Assembly: GCF_001306035.1 (NCBI RefSeq)
Contig: NZ_LGCM01000055.1
Location: 1-64,000, forward strand
Direction of reading: 5' to 3'
Source: Levilinea saccharolytica
GTDB lineage: Bacteria; Chloroflexota; Anaerolineae; Anaerolineales; Anaerolineaceae
Length of the DNA stretch: 64,000 nt
In this document: one piece after another, positions 16,509 through 54,887 of the stretch
Numbering within the stretch: position 1 is the first letter of the stretch
Layout: each line of letters starts with the position of its first letter
Position numbers and translations under genes: made by a program
Notes under the pieces: model-generated
What the model was told of the DNA's origin: nothing
The model's database searches: none
The model's input: only the letters and a program-made list of their open reading frames with translations

Positions 16509-18374
16509 TCAGCGGGCACAACGGAAGCCGTTGAGGGCGTTCGCATTGAACGGGAGGTACCTGTAGCGGGAGGCAGCGCGGAGGAAGTTAGCACTGCCGC
16601 TCCACGTGCCGCCGCGCAGCACACGGTAGTCCCCCGCCTCTGGGCCGACCGGGTTAGCGGCAGGAGAGTTCTGGTAGTAACTATCCCCATACCAATCCGC
16701 CACCCACTCCCACACGTTACCGGCCATATCCAGCGCGCCGTAGGGGCTGGCCCCGGCGGGGTAACTTCCAACGGGCGCGGTATCTGGGTAGCCGTCACAG
16801 TTGGGCCCGCCGGGAACGGTGTAAGAATCAAATAGGGTTTCATCATCAAAATTGCCTCTTGAACAGGAGAATTCATCCCCCCAGGGGTAGATGCGTTTGT
16901 CGGTGCCGCGGGCGGCTTTTTCCCATTCGGCTTCGGTGGGCAGTCGCCGCCCGGCCCAGGCGCAGTAGGCGCTGGCCTGGTGCCAATCCACATAGAGGAC
17001 CGGATAGTTGTCAAACTGGCTGCTGCCGTAGTAGGAATACCGTGTGTAAGATGATATTTCCGCGCGCGGGGTGCATTTTCCGTCGGCCACACAGCGCGCG
17101 TACATGGCGTTGGTGACTTCGGTCTGGTCAATCCAGTAGGCGTCCAAGAAGACGCGGTGCTGAGGCAGTTCATCGTCCCGCGCCTGCGGGTCTGTGCTCT
17201 TGTCCGAGCCCATCCAGAATTCACCGGCGGGAATGTAGACCATTACCATTTCATCTTTGGGGGAGACCTGGGTGGAACCGATGTCTGGAGTGGGGCTGAG
17301 ACCTGTTTCGGGAGTTGGGCCAGTGGAGGCGGCCAGAGCGGTCTGGGTGCTGTGCAGGCTGCGGGTCTGCGCGCCGCTGATCCACCATTGGATCCATTGG
17401 CTCAACCCAAACAGCACCAGCACCGCGGCCGCCCCCAGCGCCAGCCACTTGGCGTTCTGCTGCCACCCGGCCTGTCGGCGCTGGCGGGCCTCGGCCTGCT
17501 GGCGTTCGCGCTGCAACTGTTCGCGGGCAACGTGCCGGCGGCCCGCGTGCAGCCGTTCGGCGGCGGCGCGCCCGTCCCAGGGGCGCTGCCTGGGGTCCTC
17601 CGCCAGCATGGCCGCCAGCAGCTCATCCAGCCAGGCGGGGGTGTCGGCGCGCAGGCTGCGGGCACGCGTGCCGGGGCGCTGGTTGTGGTAATCTCGCCCG
17701 GTCAGGGCCAGAAACAGGCAGGCGCCGAGCATGTAGATGTCGCTGGGCGGCTTGAGCGCCTGACTGCCGAAGTTGTGCTCCGGGCTGCGGAAATTGGGGT
17801 GGCCGGGATGCACACTGAGCAGGGCGCTGGACACGCCGTAGCGTTCGCTGAACACGCCGGGGACCTGAGCCAGCCCCAGATCGGCGAGCCGGGCCCGGCC
17901 GTCACGATCAAAGAGGATGTTGCCGGGGTGCAGGTCGCGGTGGATGACATCTCTTTGATGCAGGACTGCCAGGGCATCGGCGATCTGGCCGCCGATGCGC
18001 ACGACCTCAACCACCGGGATGGGGGTGCCTTCGCGGTCGGCGGCTTCGATGCGGGCAGCCAGGCTGCCGCCCGGCATGTACTCCATGGAAAGCAGCAGAA
18101 TGCCGTGATCCTCTTCGAAGTCAAACACCTGGACGAGGTCTGAGCCGTGGAAGAGCTCGTACAGGCGGGCCTCCAGCTCGAAGCGTTCGCGGGCATCCTG
18201 CAGGCGCTGGGGGGCCGAGAATCCGGGGGCATCGGCGCGCAGCACCTTGACGGCCCGTTGACCGTTGAGCTTGATGTGGGTGGCCAGGTAGACCTCACCG
18301 AAGGCGCCCTGGCCGAGCAGGCGTTCGATGCGGTACTTGTCGAGGAGAATGTCATTGGGTTGGTAAACGGGCAT
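16509..18374 (-). CDS. Ser/Thr protein kinase fused to C-terminal FGE-sulfatase-like domain (single TM)
   Basis: MPVYQPNDILLDKYRIERLLGQGAFGEVYLA, HRDLHPGNILFD, DLGLAQ. TM WLALGAAAVLVLFGLSQWIQWWI. FGE-like YWIDQTEVTNAMYARCV...NVWEWVADWY...RVLRGGTWS...GFRCAR. The track ORF start at 18431 is an upstream extension; the true ATG is at 18372-18374 by homology to the 23504 paralog. Confidence 0.85.
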   Translation of the reverse strand: MPVYQPNDILLDKYRIERLLGQGAFGEVYLATHIKLNGQRAVKVLRADAPGFSAPQRLQDARERFELEARLYELFHGSDLVQVFDFEEDHGILLLSMEYMPGGSLAARIEAADREGTPIPVVEVVRIGGQIADALAVLHQRDVIHRDLHPGNILFDRDGRARLADLGLAQVPGVFSERYGVSSALLSVHPGHPNFRSPEHNFGSQALKPPSDIYMLGACLFLALTGRDYHNQRPGTRARSLRADTPAWLDELLAAMLAEDPRQRPWDGRAAAERLHAGRRHVAREQLQRERQQAEARQRRQAGWQQNAKWLALGAAAVLVLFGLSQWIQWWISGAQTRSLHSTQTALAASTGPTPETGLSPTPDIGSTQVSPKDEMVMVYIPAGEFWMGSDKSTDPQARDDELPQHRVFLDAYWIDQTEVTNAMYARCVADGKCTPRAEISSYTRYSYYGSSQFDNYPVLYVDWHQASAYCAWAGRRLPTEAEWEKAARGTDKRIYPWGDEFSCSRGNFDDETLFDSYTVPGGPNCDGYPDTAPVGSYPAGASPYGALDMAGNVWEWVADWYGDSYYQNSPAANPVGPEAGDYRVLRGGTWSGSANFLRAASRYRYLPFNANALNGFRCAR

Positions 18375-23503: not shown

Positions 23504-25168
23504 TCAGCGGGCACAACGGAAGCCGAAATCGCCGCTGCGGTTGTCGGGATTGCCCCTGACGCGATTCGCCGTGCGGATGCCGTTCGAACCACAGTTCCAA
23601 GAGCCCCCGCGAAGCACTCGGGTTTCGCCCGAACCCGGCCCAGTGGGGTTGGAAACAGCTTCAGAAGGGTACGGTCCATACCAATCCGCCACCCATTCCC
23701 ACACGTTGCCGGCCATATCCAGCGCGCCGTAGGGGCTGGCCCCGGCGGGGTACTGCCCCACCGCGGTGGTACCCTTTTCATGATTATTAAAGTTCGCTAA
23801 TTGCCCATTGGGGGCTTGATCCCCCCAGGGGTAAATGTGCCCGTCCGTGCCGCGGGTGGCTTTCTCCCATTCGGCTTCGCTGGGCAGACGGATGGATTGG
23901 CCGGAAACCTTGGAAGCCCAGGCGCAAAAGGCGCGGGCCTCCTCCCAGCTGACTTTTACCACCGGGTGGTTCTCTTTGCCCTGAGGGATCACCCCTTTTG
24001 ACCAATGCTCAGGCGGCTTTTGGCCAGTCTGCTGAACAAAGACCTGATATTGGCGGTTGGTCACCGGGTACTTGCCGATCCAGTATTCATCCAGAATTAC
24101 ACGATGTTGCGGCTTTTCTTTAGAATATGCGGCTTTGTCTGAATCTGCTGAACCCATCTGGAACGCCCCGGCGGGGACGCGGCAGAATTCCATCACCACG
24201 CCATCGGCCAGCGGCACCACGAGGCGGTTTTCTTCCACTTTCGGCGCTGCGGGTTTGGGAGGCTGCGGGGGCGAAGCGGCAACAGGCGCTGGCAATTCAG
24301 CGGGTGTTTCCTGGGAGGGCGGGGTCTTTGCGGGTTGGCTGTCCCCGGCCCGCAGCCTCTCGGCCAGCTCCTGCCCGTCCCAGGGGCGCTGCTCGGGGTC
24401 CTTGGCCAGCATGACCGCCAGGAGCTCATCCAGCCAGGCGGGGGTATCGGGGCGCAGACTGCGGGCAGGCGTGCCGGGGCGCAGGCCGCGGTAGCTGCGT
24501 CCGCAGAGCAGCTCAAACAGGATCAACCCCAGGGTGTAGACGTCGGAGGCGGGGGGCAAGTAGGCGAAGGAGGTTTCCTGCTCGGGGCTCATGTAGGCGG
24601 GGGTGCCGGGATGGTGCTCGACCACGCTCAGACGGGAGCGCATGGAGGCGCCGCTGGGGATTTGGGCCAGGCCCAGGTCAGCGATTTTGGCGGAGCCGTC
24701 GGCGCCGAAGAGGATATTGCTGGGTTTGAGATCGCGGTGCACCACCTCGCGCTGATGAAGGACCGCCAGGCCCGCGGCCACCTCCCGCGCTGTGCGCGTG
24801 ATTTCAGCCAGGGGAATTGGCTGACCGCATTCGCGGGCCGAGTTAATGCGCTTTTGCAGGCTGCCGCCGGGAGCAAATTCCATGGCGAGAAGCATCTCCC
24901 CCTCGGCGTCGTCAAAGTCAAACACCTGGATGAGGTGGGGGTGATTGACTTGCGCCCCGAGCTGAGATTCCAGTTGGAAGCGAGCACGGCCCTCGGCGTA
25001 CAGGCTGGAGCCGATCCCCTCGGCGTCCCGGCGCAGGACTTTGAGCGCGCGGCGGACATTCAGGTGGTTGTGCACGGCCAGGTAGACCTCACCGAAGGCG
25101 CCCTGACCGAGCAGGCGTTCGATGCGGTACTTATCGAGGAGGATGTCATTGGGTTGGTAGCTGGGCAT
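23504..25168 (-). CDS. Ser/Thr protein kinase fused to C-terminal FGE-sulfatase-like domain
   Basis: MPSYQPNDILLDKYRIERLLGQGAFGEVYLA, HRDLKPSNILFG, DLGLAQ. FGE-like YWIGKYPVTNRQYQVFV...NVWEWVADWY...RVLRGGSWN...GFRCAR. The track ORF extension to 25570 overlaps rpsT on the other strand and is spurious. Confidence 0.85.
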   Translation of the reverse strand: MPSYQPNDILLDKYRIERLLGQGAFGEVYLAVHNHLNVRRALKVLRRDAEGIGSSLYAEGRARFQLESQLGAQVNHPHLIQVFDFDDAEGEMLLAMEFAPGGSLQKRINSARECGQPIPLAEITRTAREVAAGLAVLHQREVVHRDLKPSNILFGADGSAKIADLGLAQIPSGASMRSRLSVVEHHPGTPAYMSPEQETSFAYLPPASDVYTLGLILFELLCGRSYRGLRPGTPARSLRPDTPAWLDELLAVMLAKDPEQRPWDGQELAERLRAGDSQPAKTPPSQETPAELPAPVAASPPQPPKPAAPKVEENRLVVPLADGVVMEFCRVPAGAFQMGSADSDKAAYSKEKPQHRVILDEYWIGKYPVTNRQYQVFVQQTGQKPPEHWSKGVIPQGKENHPVVKVSWEEARAFCAWASKVSGQSIRLPSEAEWEKATRGTDGHIYPWGDQAPNGQLANFNNHEKGTTAVGQYPAGASPYGALDMAGNVWEWVADWYGPYPSEAVSNPTGPGSGETRVLRGGSWNCGSNGIRTANRVRGNPDNRSGDFGFRCAR

Positions 25169-42266: not shown

Positions 42267-42412
42267 ACGGTTCTCCAATTAGGGGCTAGGTGCGAGTATA
42301 TCATAGGCGGGGGGATGGGATAGGCGCATTTGCGGGGGAATTTTTTGCGGTGCGGGGGAGAAGGTGGTATCATGGGCGATTATGGATCGGTTTGGTTAGA
42401 TTAAGAGGTGAA

Positions 42413-43729
42413 ATGATGCAGCCCACAGATGATTTTTCCATTTTTCCCATCACCACACGCGTGAACGCGGCGGGGCGGCTGTCCATCGCCGGGCACGACC
42501 TGAAGAGCCTGGCGGAGACCTACGGCACGCCGCTGTATGTGTACGACGGGGCCACCATCCGGCATCAGGCCGAGCGCTTGCAGAGCTTGTTCCGGCAGTA
42601 TTACCCCGGCGAGGCGGCCGTGGCCTACGCGGTGAAGGCCTATTTTTCACACGCGCTGGCGGTGAAGATGGCCGAGATGGGGCTGGGGGCGGATGTGGTC
42701 AGCTACGGCGAAATCCGCATTGCTCAGCAGGCGGGCTTCCCGGCGGAGGGCATTCACCTGCACGGCAACAACAAGTCGCAGCCGGAGCTGGAGGCGGCCC
42801 TGGCCTGGGGGGTGCAGGCCATTGTGGTGGACAGCCTGGATGAGATGCGCTATCTGGAAGATCTGGCGCGCAAAAATCAACGCCGGGCGCGCATTTGGCT
42901 GCGGATTACGCCGGATTTGCGCGTGAACACGCACCCGCACATTGAAACGTCGCACGCCGACAGCAAATTTGGCCTGCATATCCAAAACGGGGAGGCCGCC
43001 GAGGCCATCCGTTTCTGCAAGAACAGCCCCCATTTTCACCTGGTGGGGCTGCATACGCATTTGGGGTCGCAGATCTTTCAGGCCGAGCCGTACCGCAAGG
43101 CGATTGAGATGCTGTATGAGGTGGCCGATGCAGAAGGCTTTGTGCCGGAGGAGATCAGCCCCGGCGGGGGTTGGGGGGTGCGCTACACCGAGGCGGACGG
43201 GCCGGATGACGCCGAAGCCTGGGTGCGCACGGTGAGCGAGGCGGTGGCGGCGGCCAATCACCAGCGCGGCTGGAAGCTGCCCAAGGTGATTTTGGAGCCG
43301 GGGCGGTGGATGGTGGCGCGGGCGGGGGTGGCGCTGTACCGGGTGGGATCGCAGAAGATGACCCCCAACGGCACGCACATTGTGGCCATTGACGGCGGCT
43401 TGGCGGATAACCCGCGGGTGGCGCTGTATGGGGCGCAGTATACGGCGCGGGTGGTGGAGCGCCCCAGCGATCCGCCGACGGAGGCCATGCGCGTGGTGGG
43501 CAAATTCTGTGAATCGGGGGATGTGCTCATCCCGCACATTTTGCTGCCGCCGGTGCAGCGCGGGGAGCTTTTGGCCACGCCCGCGGCGGGGGCGTATCAG
43601 CTGAGCATGTCGTCCAATTACAATTTTGCGGCGCGGCCGGCGGTGGTGTGGTTGGAGGAGGGCCGGGTGGAGGTGATGCAGTGCTGCGAGCAGCCGGAGC
43701 AGCCCGGCTGGTGGGTGTACACGCCGTGA
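42413..43729 (+). CDS. lysA: Diaminopimelate decarboxylase (PLP-dependent, fold-III)
   Basis: TPLYVYDGATIRHQAERL...AVKAY (PLP-Lys region). HLHGNNKSQPEL. GGGWGVRY. C-terminal CESGDVL. agaggtg RBS. Confidence 0.9.
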   Translation: MMQPTDDFSIFPITTRVNAAGRLSIAGHDLKSLAETYGTPLYVYDGATIRHQAERLQSLFRQYYPGEAAVAYAVKAYFSHALAVKMAEMGLGADVVSYGEIRIAQQAGFPAEGIHLHGNNKSQPELEAALAWGVQAIVVDSLDEMRYLEDLARKNQRRARIWLRITPDLRVNTHPHIETSHADSKFGLHIQNGEAAEAIRFCKNSPHFHLVGLHTHLGSQIFQAEPYRKAIEMLYEVADAEGFVPEEISPGGGWGVRYTEADGPDDAEAWVRTVSEAVAAANHQRGWKLPKVILEPGRWMVARAGVALYRVGSQKMTPNGTHIVAIDGGLADNPRVALYGAQYTARVVERPSDPPTEAMRVVGKFCESGDVLIPHILLPPVQRGELLATPAAGAYQLSMSSNYNFAARPAVVWLEEGRVEVMQCCEQPEQPGWWVYTP

Positions 43730-43765: not shown

Positions 43766-43789
43766 GTGCATGGGCGCGTGAAGGGGCAC

Positions 43790-44056
43790 GTCGGTAGGGG
43801 CGCGTGTAGGGGCGCGTCTCAGACGCGCCCGAAAAACGGGGGCACGCGCCAGAAGAACGGGGGCACGCGCCCAAAGAACGGGGCACGCGCCCGAAGAACG
43901 GGGGCACGGGCCAAAAGCGCCCGTGCCCGTACGGGAACGTGAACGCAGGGAAGTGATCTGCACCTTTCGGGGGGGAGATCCCCACAGCCCTCGAAGTACG
44001 AGGGCACGCCCCCAAAAGGCGGGGGCAAGCAATGACATCAGGATGAGCGGGGCACC
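43790..44056. repeat. Non-coding repeat locus: REP-like palindromes (gtaggggcgcg x2; ggggcgcgtctcagacgcgccc), 4 x ~21-nt tandem repeat (c.gaa.aacgggggcacgcgc), and a degenerate copy of the caatgacat element
   Basis: Read directly: gtaggggcgcgtgtaggggcgcgtctcagacgcgcccgaaaaacgggggcacgcgccagaagaacgggggcacgcgcccaaagaacggggcacgcgcccgaagaacgggggcacgggcc ... ccctcgaagtacgaggg ... gcccccaaaaggcgggggcaagcaatgacat. Confidence 0.75.
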
Positions 44057-44680
44057 CTACGCAGATGGACGGCTTTGCAGCTGCTTGACGGCGGGCAGAG
44101 CCTGGGCGACGAAGAAGGTGATCATCAGGCGCACGATGCTGCTGTAGAAATTCATCATGGAGCCTTGCCCTGGGCCGATGAAGAGGCCCAGCACGGCATC
44201 CAGCCCCAGCAGAACCACGGCGGCCAGGAGTGCCCACCACGACAGGCGGCGGGTGAGGTAGGCCAGGGCCAGCAGCAGGGCGCCGTAGCCGAGCTGGTAC
44301 ATGCCGATGCCCATGCTGACGAGCACTTGCCAGCGGAAGAGCAGGGCTAGCAGGCCGGTGAGGAAATTAAACCCGCCTACCAGGAGGATGAGGCTGAAGG
44401 CGTTTTTGAGGCGGGTTTCGGGGTGGGCGGCGGTGCCGGGCAGGTGCTGCCCGTTGCGCAGCACGGCCAGCTCGGCGGCCAGGCCGGTAAAGAGCTGCAC
44501 GTGCAGGGTGGAGCCGTCGGGCAGAGGAAAATCTTGCCCGGCGGTCAGGGCTTTTTTATTTTCCACGCGGCCCACTTCCACGCCGTCCAGTTTGACGGTG
44601 AACTGGGTCCAGTTGGGGGCCCAGGAAATTTCCAGGCGCAGGGGCCCGTTGGGTTCCAGGGCATAGGTTTGGATGGGCAT
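44057..44680 (-). CDS. Hypothetical protein: N-terminal soluble beta domain + three C-terminal TM helices
   Basis: Start set at the internal ATG (MPIQTYALEPNGP...). C-terminal hydrophobic helices. No recognisable motif. Confidence 0.45.
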   Translation of the reverse strand: MPIQTYALEPNGPLRLEISWAPNWTQFTVKLDGVEVGRVENKKALTAGQDFPLPDGSTLHVQLFTGLAAELAVLRNGQHLPGTAAHPETRLKNAFSLILLVGGFNFLTGLLALLFRWQVLVSMGIGMYQLGYGALLLALAYLTRRLSWWALLAAVVLLGLDAVLGLFIGPGQGSMMNFYSSIVRLMITFFVAQALPAVKQLQSRPSA

Positions 44681-44915
44681 ACGGCAGGGTGCTCCTTGGG
44701 CGGGTGGAATGGGTGCATCCAGTCTACCTGTTCTGGGCGAAATGTCAAGGGGGCTGGCAGGCGGTTGAAACCAAGAGGGGGATGTGTTATGATGATAGTG
44801 GACATCTAAATAAAACAGGCTGCGGCGCTGCGGGTGTGCATTTCTCCGCCTGATTTGGCTCCATTTCCCTCCCACCGGTTCGGCGGGAGGTTTTTGTTTG
44901 CAGAGGAGGTGCAAG

Positions 44916-50939: not shown

Positions 50940-51113
50940 TACAATCTCTCCTATCGTATTCTGCCCAATGGTGTGCATTCATGGCAGGTGGGATTTGGCA
51001 GGTAAATACCTAAGCGAAGAACCCGATTTCGGGGTTAAAACCTTTCCTTTGAAGGCAACAAGTGCGCCGCACTGCGTCCAGGTGGGGTTGAATATCGGTG
51101 GTGGATGACCATC

Positions 51114-51554
51114 TTATTCCGGTTCTGGGATCTGATGCTCGCCCAGGTGGCCGGTGAATTCCATGTTAAGCTGGCGCAGCACGTTCTCATTCTCGAAAGC
51201 GGCTTCCGGTAAGCGTTCCACGAAGTCAATCAAGGCGGTGCGCATGGTCTCAAAGGACGCGGCGATCTCATCCTCGCTTTTGGCAGCCGCCTGGGCAACG
51301 GCTTCAGCGTTGAAGGCGTCCACATCATATCGGAGCGGTTGGAAGGTGGGGTCGCTGAGATAGCGCTGGATGGATTGATGGCCGACCTGCCACCAGGCCA
51401 CGATGTGGGCCAGCAGGTCGCCAAAACGGGCGTACCCCTGCGCGGCCAGGAAGGCGGTCTGCGCCTCGGGGGACATGCGGCGAAATTGGGGGATGTATTC
51501 CGCCCAATCCTGGCGGAGGATCTGTAGAACTTGCTGTTGAACCGGATGAGTCAT
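51114..51554 (-). CDS. Hypothetical helical protein (possibly ClbS/DfsB DUF1706-like four-helix bundle)
   Basis: 146 aa, helical. DLLAHIVAWWQVG resembles the ClbS-family Trp-rich helix. Weak. Confidence 0.35.
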   Translation of the reverse strand: MTHPVQQQVLQILRQDWAEYIPQFRRMSPEAQTAFLAAQGYARFGDLLAHIVAWWQVGHQSIQRYLSDPTFQPLRYDVDAFNAEAVAQAAAKSEDEIAASFETMRTALIDFVERLPEAAFENENVLRQLNMEFTGHLGEHQIPEPE

Positions 51555-51641
51555 GAGGATACCCTTTTTCGTTTGATTATATCCCCCTGTTTTGAAGAGT
51601 CAAATACCCACTGGCTGTTTTGACAGGATGTCCACAAGGGC

Positions 51642-52220
51642 TTAACGGCGGCGGGGATTTTCGGCCCAATTGGCCGGGTTGGCCTGGATGTATTGATGGA
51701 TTTGCTGATATTCCTGCTCACTGCGGATGATGTGTTCGTAATAGTTGCGTTGCCATACGGGCGTGCCGGGGGCTTGGCGGACGGCGTTGATGCGCCGGGC
51801 GGAGAAGGATTTGAAGGCACGCACGATTTCGGACAGCGGATATATGCGCGGGTTGGTGGGTATAGGGTCGGTGGGCGTAGGGGTGGTGTGCGTAGTGGGC
51901 GTAGGGGCGGGTCTCAGACCCGCCCCTACTACAACGGCCCCCGCCCCTACAACCACATCATCCACATTATGCAGGAGGATGATTCCATGCACATGATCCG
52001 GCATGATGCAAAAGGTGCCCAATTCAACCTGGGCATAATGGACGGGCAAATCTTGCCAGGCGTGTTCAACGATTTTGCCATATTCATTCAAATGCATGCC
52101 GCCGTCATGGATTTCCCCCAGGGAGGTTTCGTGCCCGTGTGCCTTGATGGTGACGAAATAGGCGCCGGCCCGGGTGTAATCGTAACCGGGCAGGCGGATG
52201 GAACGGCGGCGGTGCTGCAT
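51642..52220 (-). CDS. REP-associated tyrosine transposase (RAYT; IS200-like Y1/HuH transposase) carrying an in-frame REP-like insertion
   Basis: YDYTRAGAYFVTIKAH (motif). HuH motif DHVHGIILL. C-terminal catalytic Tyr region QRNYYEHIIRSEQEY. Central ~36-aa Gly/Val/Pro/Thr-rich insert encoded by palindromic DNA. Confidence 0.8.
   Translation of the reverse strand: MQHRRRSIRLPGYDYTRAGAYFVTIKAHGHETSLGEIHDGGMHLNEYGKIVEHAWQDLPVHYAQVELGTFCIMPDHVHGIILLHNVDDVVVGAGAVVVGAGLRPAPTPTTHTTPTPTDPIPTNPRIYPLSEIVRAFKSFSARRINAVRQAPGTPVWQRNYYEHIIRSEQEYQQIHQYIQANPANWAENPRRR
51850..51960. repeat. REP-like palindromic repeats inside the RAYT ORF (perfect 13-bp IR gtaggggcgggtc tca gacccgcccctac plus further gtagggg/cccctac copies)
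   Basis: Read directly at 51901-51929. Related to ggggcgcgtctcagacgcgccc at 43808-43828. Confidence 0.8.
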
Positions 52221-52307
52221 GCGGATGCCTCCAATGCCCCCGTGCCTGGGGGATGCTGCTGCCAGGTGCGGGAATCCCCTATTGATATTTGAAGATCACC
52301 CCACCCC

Positions 52308-54887
52308 TCAGCACTCTGAGTAGCCGCAGGCGTAACATTTGCGGCAGCCCTCCTCGTTCACCACGGCGGCCTGGCCGCATTCGGGGCACAGATCGCCAAT
52401 GCGGGGCAGGCTGACAGCTGCCAAAGGCGGTGTTGCCGCGGCGGCCTGGATGAGGGGCAGGGGGGCCTGGATGGGGGCATCGGCATCGGATTGGGCCAGG
52501 CGCTCCTGGCGTTCCTGTAAATATTCTTCCAGCACCTGGGCCACGCCGTCGGGCAGAGAGCGCACGCGGTTGGGGCCAAAGCCCAGGGATCGCCCGCCGC
52601 CGATGCCGCCCAGCTGGCGGGTGATTTCGCTCAGGCGGCGCGAGGGTTCGATGGGAGAGGCGATGCGCAGCACGTACGACACCAGCCGCCCGATGGCTTC
52701 CGAGACGGCGGCGGTGTCGGAGCCGGCCTTGGCGGTGTTGATGAAGACTTCAAAGGGCTGCGAGCCGCCGTTTTCGTTGATGGTGACAAAGGCTTTGCCC
52801 AGGGGGGTTTCCACCGTGTAGGTGTAGCCGGGCAGGGAACGCGGGCGGGGCTTTTTGGCGTCGTGCCAGATATGGAGCTGATCCGCGGCGTCGGCAGCGG
52901 GGGTCTTTTGCTTGGCCTGCAGGGTGGCGTGGGTTTCCAGCACCACTTTTTCACGTGAGCCGGTGACGTACACGGTGAGGCCCTTGCAGCCCAGCTTCCA
53001 GGCCAGCAGGTAGGCGGTGGCCACATCTTCGGGGCCGGCCTCAGCGGGGAAGTTGATGGTCTTGGAGAGGGAGTTATCCACAAAGGCCTGCATGGCGGCC
53101 TGCATGCGCACGTGCTCTTCGGCGGAAATATCGGCGGAGACGACGAAGACCTGACGGATGGATTCGGGCAGGGCTTCCACCGCCTGGCAGGAACCGTCGC
53201 GCATGGTCTGTTCATAGACGGCCTGTTGGGTTTCGGGGTCCAGGCCGGCTTCTTCCAGTGCGCGCTGGAAATGGGGCGAGGTGTAGGTGAGCTGCAGATC
53301 GCGGCCGTTGTCGTTGACGTGGCGGATATAGGCCAGGGCGAAAACCGGCTCGCAGCCGTAGCCCTCACAGCCGGCCACGGTGGCGATGGTTCCCGTGGGG
53401 GCGATGGTGGTTTGGGCGGCGTTGCGGATGCCGTACTGGCGCAGATCGGCCTCCAGGCCCTCCCAATCCACCGCCGGGCGGCCCCAATCGCTGGTATAGG
53501 CTTCCAGCGGGGCGGGCGGCGACCAGCGCAGATTGGCGGGGTCGTACAGCGAGCCGCGGATGGCGGGGAAGGGGCCGCGTTCACGGGCCAGATCCACCGA
53601 GGTGCGCATGGCCTGATAGCGGACAAATTCCATCACCTGGGCGGCGAATTCCTGACCCTGGGGGGAGCCGTAGCGGATGCCGACGTGGTACATCAGGTCG
53701 GCAAGGCCCATGATGCCCAGGCCGATGCGGCGGGCGCGGTGGGCGGCCTCGGAAAGCTGGGGCACGGCGGGGACGTACTGGTTGGCGTCAATCACATCGT
53801 CGAGGAAGCGGGTGGCGATCTCCACCGAATGGCGCACGGCTTCCCAATCCACGCTGTGATCGGGGCCGAAAAGCTCAGCGAGATTGACGGAACCCAGGCA
53901 GCAGTTTTCATAGGGGCCAAGCCACTGCTCGCCGCAGGGATTGGTGGCTTCCAGAGGGTAAAGGTGCGGGACGGGGTTGTAACGGTTGGCGGCGTCCAGG
54001 AAGAGCATGCCCGGCTCACCGTTGTGGTGCGACTGGCGCACAATCAGATCAAACAGCTCGCGGGCGCGCACGGTGCGGTAGGTCTTGATGGGGATGCCGG
54101 CGGCCTCGGCCTCTTCCAGGGTGCCGGAGAAGCCGCGGTAGGCGGGGTGGTGAACATCGGGGAAGCGCAGATCCCAATCGGCGTCGGCTTCCACGGCGCG
54201 CATGAAGGCGTCGGTGATGCCCACGGAGATGTTGAAATTGGTGATCTGGTTTTCGTTGGTCTTGCAGGAGATGAACTCTTCGATATCGGGGTGATCCACA
54301 CGCAGCACGGCCATGTTGGCGCCGCGGCGCGAGCCGCCCTGAGCCACCTCGCCGAAGGCGTGATCATAGACACGCAAAAAGCCCACCGGGCCGGTGGCCT
54401 GACCGGCGGAGGATTTGACCAGGGAGCCCTGGGGGCGCAGGCGGGAGAAGGAGAAGCCGTTGCCGCCGCCGGTCTGCTGGATGAGGGCGGCGTCGCGCAG
54501 GGTTTGGAAAATGCCGGTGGATTCGCGGCCCATATCATCCGTGATGGGCAGCACGAAACAGGCCGCCAATTGACCCAGGGGAGTGCCCGCGCCGGTGAAG
54601 GTGGGCGAATTGGGGAAGAAGCGCCGGGCAGTGAGCAGGGTGTAAAATTCGCGGGCGCGGGCGTTGATGTCCACGTTCCAGGATTCTTCCACTTTGGCCA
54701 CGTGGTAGGCCACGCGCCAGAACATCTCGTCCACAGTTTCGGCCGGAGAGCCGTCATCTGCGCGGCGCACGTAGCGGCGGATGAGCACCTGGCGGGCGTT
54801 ATCGGTCAATTGAATCGAAGGAAGATCGGCGGGGATGGGGGGAGTGGGGAGGACGGCGGCACGCCGGTTTTTAGAATCGGTGGACAT
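52308..54887 (-). CDS. nrdJ: Ribonucleotide reductase, probably class II adenosylcobalamin-dependent (NrdJ), with C-terminal zinc ribbon
   Basis: ATP-cone-less RNR catalytic core. Active-site NPCGEQWL...CCLGSVNL. No nrdB/nrdF in the vicinity. C-terminal CPECG...CRKCYACG. Preceded by nrdR. Confidence 0.85.

Follow-up and report, generated by a model that had tools for sequence, protein, structure and literature searches.

A GTAG-footed REP palindrome nested in frame within a RAYT gene of Levilinea saccharolytica

The stretch of Levilinea saccharolytica DNA analysed here (64 kb of contig NZ_LGCM01000055.1, hereafter the window) contains, at 51642..52220 on the minus strand, a gene of the RAYT (REP-associated tyrosine transposase) or TnpAREP type, REP standing for repetitive extragenic palindrome. 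The gene runs from ATG to stop, encodes 192 aa and is subclass 2.4-like; a perfect palindrome of the REP kind lies in frame within it. We think it very probable that this is an ordinary, functional subclass 2.4 TnpAREP that carries a nested copy of its own GTAG-footed REP in a disordered loop. That a REP can lie inside a tnpAREP gene is already published, as a hallmark of subclass 2.4 described in 2018 (PMC6006769). New in the present analysis are the action at the DNA level, the tracking of REP type with enzyme core, the dispersal of the 29-nt palindrome, the gain and loss of its arms in frame, and the reassignment of the motif RNYYEHII.

The nested palindrome and the protein around it

The inner double-foot REP, GTAGGGGCGGGTCT-C-AGACCCGCCCCTAC, spans 51901..51929 and is present on both strands. 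Its arms, 14 nt each and 100% complementary, enclose one central base, a perfect 14+1+14 palindrome that offers a GTAG-footed hairpin on either strand. The original prediction had described a perfect inverted repeat of 13 bp; the repeat is real, and the claimed length was an underestimate. The 14-bp stem, feet included, opens with GTAG-GGG...CCC-CTAC and has three G-C pairs at its base. On the coding strand the palindrome reads GTA GGG GCG GGT CTG AGA CCC GCC CCT AC, that is V98-G-A-G-L-R-P-A-P-T107, and because the element is palindromic the same peptide (VGAGLRPAPT) is obtained from either strand. Outside it, in the coding-strand reading, lie a left half-arm GTAGGGGCGGGGGCC (V91-G-A-G-A; 51936..51950, minus strand) and a decayed right half-arm CCACCCCTAC (T112-T-P-T; 51877..51886, minus strand); in the predicted nested fold the right half-arm pairs with the outer left arm. 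Additional Pro/Thr codons near the palindrome are likewise of arm-sequence origin. The whole REP-derived linker (51837..51968, minus strand; approximately residues 85–128) forms a disordered loop that leads from the HuH strand to the DNA-binding helix 129–148.

Might such a palindrome arise by chance? Perfect GT[AG]G-footed hairpins are found at two places only in the window, 51901–51929 and 43806–43830, and 20 Markov shuffles contained 0–2 each. The 106-nt segment is predicted to form a nested hairpin, whose folding z-score relative to dinucleotide shuffles is -3.65 for DNA and -4.31 for RNA. Given the hairpin scan and the fold z-scores, the palindrome in the RAYT gene is not due to chance. 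An Rfam scan of 51000–52800 (E<=1) returned no RNA family. A role as intragenic terminator was considered and found to be unsupported, a consensus scan having detected no terminator at the hairpin.

What kind of protein surrounds the palindrome? Its sequence agrees 100% with the NCBI entry 'transposase [Levilinea saccharolytica]', and Pfam Y1_Tnp matches it at 30.5 bits (cutoff 23), in the C-terminal half only. A family-profile search of the PDB places 4ER8, the structure of E. coli TnpAREP in complex with a REP hairpin, first (E=4e-6), and 4er8_A is the top PDB match of Foldseek for the AlphaFold2 (AF2) model (E=9.8e-7, template-modelling score 0.62, root-mean-square deviation 3.1). A single-sequence phmmer search against the PDB gave no match; profile and fold searches were required to reach 4ER8.

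For the residues we relied on an alignment of 36 sequences, the window protein and 35 homologues of 161–285 aa. Its 30 invariant columns, all of them kept by the window protein, include H76, H78, W156, Q157, Y177 and N181. The HuH motif, which the original prediction had located in HVHGIILL, is confirmed as H76-V77-H78 (51987..51995, minus strand), at the end of beta strand 76–83 of the AF2 model, and H76 and H78 are aligned with the HuH of 4ER8. The stretch WQRNYYEHIIR (W156-Q157...E162-H163...R166; 51723..51755, minus strand) aligns to residues 91–122 of 4ER8. In this profile alignment W156, Q157, E162, H163 and R166 correspond to W94, Q95, E100, H101 and R104 of E. coli TnpAREP, whose W-Q, E-H and R residues touch the GTAG foot (PMC6006769, PMC8266576). 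The motif RNYYEHII is indeed present, at 158–165, but it falls within this GTAG-contact stretch and is not the catalytic-tyrosine region for which it had been taken. The catalytic tyrosine is Y177, in the motif Y177-I-Q-A-N181-P182 (51675..51692, minus strand), the counterpart of Y115...N119-P120 in 4ER8; I178 is invariant in the alignment as well, and Y---NP is the class 2 signature (PMC6006769). The protein ends 10 residues past N181-P182, without a C-terminal extension.

The AF2 model, made with the family alignment, has a predicted local distance difference test score (pLDDT) of 80.6, with 110 residues at >=90 and a confident core. Between the HuH strand 76–83 and the helix 129–148 the pLDDT of the linker is <50 at residues 90–94, 101–114 and 117–121. 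The conserved motifs, the profile and fold matches to 4ER8 and the Pfam match bear out the RAYT/TnpAREP-type Y1 HuH gene first proposed, and the in-frame REP segment between the HuH and the C-terminal motifs, with its GTAG foot and G/C stem, is genuine. Taken as part of the joint reading given at the outset, the protein is very probably a Y1 HuH single-strand DNA endonuclease/strand-transferase of the TnpAREP type.

A family-wide slot for a DNA-level element

Alignment to family members confirms the position of the insert, the length differences gathering at that one site. Most aligned homologues have VGAGLRPAPT, VGAG(L/F)KPAPT or VGAGSEPAPT at exactly the REP slot, and VGAG(L/F/S)(R/K/E)PAPT and other palindrome-coded peptides share it across Chloroflexota, Cyanobacteria, Nitrospirota, Planctomycetota, Bacteroidota and others. 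Indeed, the loop that follows the HuH is nearly always the translation of a palindrome: VGAGFKPAPT, VGARHAVPL, VGATHASPL, VGAQHAAPL, VGAIHELPL or VGAHGRAPL, and further VGATRRVAPT, RRGGSRTAPT, RGTACRAPT, RRGVLQYAPT or GQPQGVAPT.

At the nucleotide level we examined 80 homologous loci, taken from contigs of one genome per species and chosen by similarity to the query; they belong to Chloroflexota, Cyanobacteria, Nitrospirota, Planctomycetota, Bacteroidota, Proteobacteria, Patescibacteria and other phyla. A perfect GT[AG]G-footed hairpin occurs in the gene region at 61 of 79 loci, an approximate figure in that the 'inside' class spans ~250–300 nt around the loop and may take in REPs outside short open reading frames (ORFs). 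A perfect double-foot stem of >=10 bp is present in 39 of 83 genes. Double-foot stems are exactly 14 bp long in 31 of 42 cases and start with GTAGGGGC in 37 of 42. The members with short loops and no REP are L012, L033, L037, L039, L050 and L059 (10–19 residues) and L041 (26 residues), 4 of the 7 being cyanobacterial; the nested REP is therefore dispensable for the persistence of the protein. As judged from these alignments, the REP slot is an old, family-wide feature.

Is it the peptide or the DNA that matters in this slot? The six inner base pairs of the stem exist in at least 16 versions, and both arms are always altered together. The GTAG is read in frame 0 (GTA GGG, V-G) in 33 cases and in frame 1 (xGT AGG, x-R) in 9, and never in frame 2, where TAG would be a stop. 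Two frames thus turn the same arms into unrelated peptides, and selection on the peptide is therefore ruled out. By these sequence criteria the REP segment is a DNA-level element and the encoded peptide a by-product. Palindrome-coded peptides such as VGAGLRPAPT, VGARHASPL, RRGGSRTAPT and others are then to be read as REP footprints and not as protein motifs.

The closest comparison is with L081, L082 and L083 (the last duplicates L082), syntenic orthologues whose 29-nt REP is identical to that of the window gene and stands at the same codon position. In the window the RAYT gene lies directly downstream of a class II ribonucleotide reductase gene (52308..54887, minus strand), and the order nrdR – class II ribonucleotide reductase – RAYT is repeated in L082 and L083. 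The original prediction had set self-targeted insertion beside the opposite case, in which orthologous RAYTs would carry the same linker; it is the latter that is found, in these orthologues and, as regards a REP at this position, in most homologues. The segment is thus not an insertion private to this gene, nor is it recent in the lineage. The orthologous genes have ~88% nucleotide identity, and all 29 positions of the palindrome are identical in all three, while 35 of 50 core 4-fold sites (70%) are invariant. Drawing 29 of 29 at the 4-fold-site rate has P ~3e-5, and ~2e-3 if all core positions are used.

Over the two core halves, the ratio of nonsynonymous to synonymous divergence (dN/dS, by the Nei–Gojobori method) is 0.28 against L081 and 0.31 against L082; by the same method it is 0.05 for the neighbouring nrd gene and ~0.9–2.1 for the RAYT linker. 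These core ratios indicate that purifying selection acts on the RAYT cores and that the gene is not decaying. Synonymous divergence (dS) of the linker is 0.07 against L081 (cores 0.41) and 0.27 against L082 (cores 0.32); the reduction is seen in the first comparison and not in the second, so we did not rely on it and used the invariance of the 29-mer instead. Since the surrounding peptide is unconstrained while the 29-mer is invariant, the palindrome is, on the sequence evidence, kept perfect at the DNA level, be it via selection or via homogenisation from other copies.

The arms around the palindrome do change. The window gene has two left half-arms, L081 has three and L082/L083 have one; the right arms change to match, and all arm indels between the orthologues are multiples of three. 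Other homologues have tandem runs of right arms, for example (xPAPT)n, or a seven-fold KPAPTDTVHM repeat. At L082:11544–11640, ~1 kb downstream of the RAYT gene, there is also an extragenic copy of the identical REP, immediately followed by ~45 nt resembling the RAYT 3' end (...ANPAHWDRDPRRR-stop). This stretch may be what is left of a second RAYT copy after a deletion running from the REP almost to the stop codon.

How does the type of REP relate to the enzyme? At 23 loci the stem sequence of the intragenic REP occurs also in the flanks, outside the gene. Core identity, with the linker removed, declines steadily from 60% at a stem Hamming distance of 0 to 43% at a distance of 8; stem distance and core identity are correlated with Spearman rho = -0.34, and 0 of 2000 label permutations were as strong. 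Identical stem types turn up in separate phyla, GGTTCG in Chloroflexota and Nitrospirota, GTATTG in Bacillota and Salinibacteraceae. By eye, the REP type matches the class to which the helix after the loop belongs by sequence. The E. coli counterpart of this helix is the DNA-binding helix that touches the REP stem, and experiments on groups 2 and 3 have shown that TnpAREP groups co-evolve with their REPs (PMC8266576).

Two loci contain pairs of RAYT genes ~0.7–1.5 kb apart. The genes of L013, at 10213 and 11699, have the same intragenic REP type (GGTTCG); those of L064, at 9464 and 10207, have differing types (GCACGG and GGTTCG), which match different helix-alphaC classes.

The exact Levilinea 29-mer, GTAGGGGCGGGTCTNAGACCCGCCCC, is present in at least 120 metagenome contigs. 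Double-foot copies make up 95 of the 133 sites listed; RAYT core halves enclose 2 of the sites, a single RAYT core adjoins 3 more, and 126 have no RAYT core adjacent. At the 89 sites away from RAYT cores and contig ends, the median open frame is 486 nt, against 1161 nt at random positions in the same contigs. By these counts the 29-mer is a dispersed REP that lies mostly away from RAYT genes. For Levilinea, the REP copies visible amount to one related extragenic copy in the 64-kb window. Arrays of identical 29-nt double-foot REPs were also seen in the metagenome contigs L137 and L154, and at L085:1500–2002, where five copies 104–134 nt apart, with conserved spacers, form a cluster resembling a bacterial interspersed mosaic element (BIME).

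Mechanism, alternative readings and other repeats in the window

In the mechanism that we propose, the cognate substrate of the enzyme would be a GTAG-footed, G/C-rich REP hairpin, of which a double-foot copy (GTAG...CTAC) is nested in the codons of the loop. The copy would be tolerated there, in a surface loop that faces away from the active site and would accept any sequence. Turnover of the REP at the site, by RAYT-mediated processing, slippage or gene conversion, would keep the palindrome perfect while its arms multiply and shrink. Selection on the enzyme would filter the survivors, leaving lengths that are multiples of three and a GTAG never in the TAG-reading frame, and the REP in the slot co-diverges with the enzyme core. 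We infer in this way both the upkeep of a perfect REP by ongoing turnover and its tolerance from the position of the loop.

Several points weigh against this reading. NCBIfam REP_Tyr_transpos scores the protein at 62.6 bits, below its cutoff of 80, in a two-piece match; the score falls short because the REP insert splits the domain match. On either side of the RAYT gene, 1 kb of sequence holds no GT[AG]G-footed hairpin; the nearest one beyond the ORF is 8 kb off at 43806–43830, while most published subclass 2.4 loci are flanked by REPs. Levilinea has DHVH where the subclass signature has NH[IFV]H, and YIQANP for YIxNNP; the D of DHVH recurs in a few homologues, most close homologues having NH.H. 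The assignment to subclass 2.4 is made from shared features. The percentages of loci given above are not an unbiased census, the loci having been picked by similarity to the query. Finally, that the nested REP is the cognate substrate of the enzyme we infer from co-occurrence, co-divergence and the conserved GTAG-contact residues of the sequence.

Could the nested REP be selected in its own right, as a cis element? It might be a minimal REPtron or master copy that re-seeds REPs after horizontal transfer, or a site of self-sensing or regulation. Such a role would extend the reading we prefer and does not exclude it; we regard it as possible, though unlikely. All 29 REP positions are invariant against 70% of 4-fold sites (P ~3e-5), within a peptide whose dN/dS is >=1; the slot is filled in most family members across phyla; the REP type goes with the RAYT core, the same types reappearing in unrelated phyla; and with no flanking REP in the window, the intragenic REP is the only one at the locus. 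Yet the members with loops of 10–19 residues persist without a REP, and enzyme–substrate specificity alone predicts co-divergence (PMC8266576). The perfection of the palindrome could equally result from gene conversion or re-insertion by extragenic copies, which are far commoner, only 2 of the 133 listed sites being in a RAYT gene. The further claim that the nested REP is a heritable master copy or self-recognition site, and the RAYT gene a self-contained replicator unit, seems to us rather improbable. If it held, the REP type would travel with its RAYT across phyla and re-seed a REP family, or autoregulate, in new hosts, and it would explain the subclass-wide slot, the perfect palindrome despite peptide drift and the tracking of REP type with core.

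The two origins first suggested for the palindrome fare worse. The perfection of the inner palindrome, taken alone, suggests youth, and REPs do enter various unrelated genes (PMC3733652); a recent, lineage-specific, self-targeted insertion whose frame was kept by luck is nevertheless very improbable, for the identical REP occupies the identical codon position in syntenic orthologues at a synonymous divergence of 0.3–0.4, this loop is occupied by REPs in homologues of 40–60% identity from many phyla, and the decayed outer arms point to an older underlying layer. Decay, with the palindromes as junk in a dead ORF, is scarcely credible. It might be argued from the Pfam match to the C-terminal half alone, the NCBIfam score below cutoff, an N-terminus 5 residues shorter than in most homologues and the want of a consensus promoter directly upstream. 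But the 192-codon frame is unbroken, all invariant catalytic and contact columns are kept, core dN/dS is 0.28–0.31, the confident core of the AF2 model resembles 4ER8, and the domain-splitting insert accounts for the weak scores of the hidden Markov models (HMMs). Least credible of all is a Gly/Ala/Pro/Thr linker selected as a peptide, for instance as a flexible tether, with incidental palindromy of the DNA. VGAGLRPAPT-like peptides do occur in many homologues, but the two frames give unrelated ones (VGA... and RRGGS.../RGTAC...; APT and PL), the 16 inner stem types always have both arms changed together, identical sequences lie outside genes, and linker dN/dS is ~1–2.

As an annotation the gene carries little weight, being one more subclass 2.4 RAYT. 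Its domain-splitting insert does imply that curated HMMs under-score such proteins. In a subfamily that would keep its substrate in its own gene, the 14-bp arm, its two frames, the co-divergence of REP type and core, and the in-frame gain and loss of arms are handles on the coupling between RAYT and REP.

What other repeats of this kind does the window hold? The extragenic single-foot REP GTAG-GGGCGCGTCT-C-AGACGCGCCC (43806..43830, plus strand) came from the hairpin scan. Its loop is that of the nested REP, its stem differs by a compensatory G/C swap, and it is situated between the convergent genes 42290..43729 (plus strand) and 44057..44914 (minus strand), in a cluster of arm repeats at 43772–43917 that consists of a 12-nt left-arm unit repeated 3.7 times, the single-foot REP and a 21-nt unit, ACGCGCCCGAAGAACGGGGGC, repeated 4.3 times. 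The cluster looks like a tandem amplification of REP arms, the type of event seen in the RAYT linkers. Three near-matches to the arm were rejected as REPs, none having a partner arm: two of them (16740 and 23729) fall in the coding sequence of paralogous genes resembling formylglycine-generating enzyme (FGE)/SUMF1, and the third (49908) is in a tautomerase-like ORF. The two paralogues (16740–16752 and 23729–23741), assigned by eye, are nearly identical over long stretches, GTAGGGGCTGGCC among them.

As to further RAYT copies, for which the original prediction had suggested a search, tblastn of the protein against the 64-kb window found no second copy or remnant. A promoter consensus scan found none directly upstream of the RAYT gene and none between nrd and RAYT, and because of this the RAYT gene and the ribonucleotide reductase gene may share a transcript. 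The sole sigma-70-like match in the region, TTGACT-16-TATAAT (11/12; 51576–51603, minus strand), follows the RAYT stop and precedes the next gene, 51114..51554.

Comparison with known systems

Subclass 2.4 of TnpAREP was defined by Quentin, Siguier, Chandler & Fichant (2018, BMC Genomics 19:475, PMC6006769) and equals group 4 in the RAYT scheme of Bertels et al. (2017, PMC5581495). Its signature is NH[IFV]H / WQ / YIxNNP and its mean length 194 aa; it is plentiful among Cyanobacteria and Bacteroidetes and scattered through many phyla (PMC6006769), group 4 being common in Cyanobacteria, Chlorobia and Caldilineae (PMC5581495). Its REPs are 'long' or 'double foot' (5' GT[AG]G ... C[TC]AC 3') with three G-C pairs at the base of the stem, and a REP in frame inside the tnpAREP gene, peripheral in the structural model, is a feature unique to the subclass (PMC6006769). 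No later report of REPs inside RAYT genes came up in a literature search.

The Levilinea gene shares with this subclass the HuH, W-Q and Y---NP motifs, a conserved N-terminal motif ahead of the core, a length of 192 aa against ~194 aa and the want of a C-terminal extension. It shares as well the in-frame REP insert of variable length between beta3 (HuH) and alphaC, double-foot REPs whose stems start with three G-C base pairs, and a patchy, multi-phylum spread that includes Chloroflexi-type lineages. Besides the departures weighed above, it differs in phylum: those highlighted for the subclass are Cyanobacteria and Bacteroidetes, and Chloroflexota (Anaerolineae) are not among them.

With E. coli TnpAREP (YafM; 4ER8, subclass 2.2 or group 2) the protein has in common the fold, the catalytic Tyr and Asn, the HuH and the GTAG-contacting W, Q, E, H and R; the substrate there is a GTAG-footed hairpin in single-stranded DNA. 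However, some 30 residues separate the HuH from the W in E. coli and ~78 in Levilinea, and the C-terminal tail of the E. coli protein has no counterpart in Levilinea. The E. coli REPs are imperfect, bulged and strictly extragenic, and they flank the gene (REPtron) rather than being nested in it.

In-frame palindromes in genes have been met elsewhere. Di Nocera et al. (2013, PMC3733652) catalogued GTAG REPs, including REPs in frame in other genes, and these intragenic GTAG/CGTC REPs, like the Rickettsia palindromic elements (RPE), are palindromic repeats translated as an extra surface segment. Those, however, occupy sporadic sites in various genes, whereas in the RAYT case the REP lies in the gene of its own putative enzyme, in the same loop subfamily-wide.

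The TnpA of the IS200/IS605 family (IS608, ISDra2) resembles the RAYT protein in its Y1 HuH chemistry, its recognition of a sub-terminal hairpin and a guide-like tetranucleotide 5' of that hairpin. There the hairpins flank the transposase gene, none lying in the coding sequence, and the element is mobile and multi-copy; the Levilinea RAYT, by comparison, is single-copy in the window, syntenic and apparently vertically inherited.

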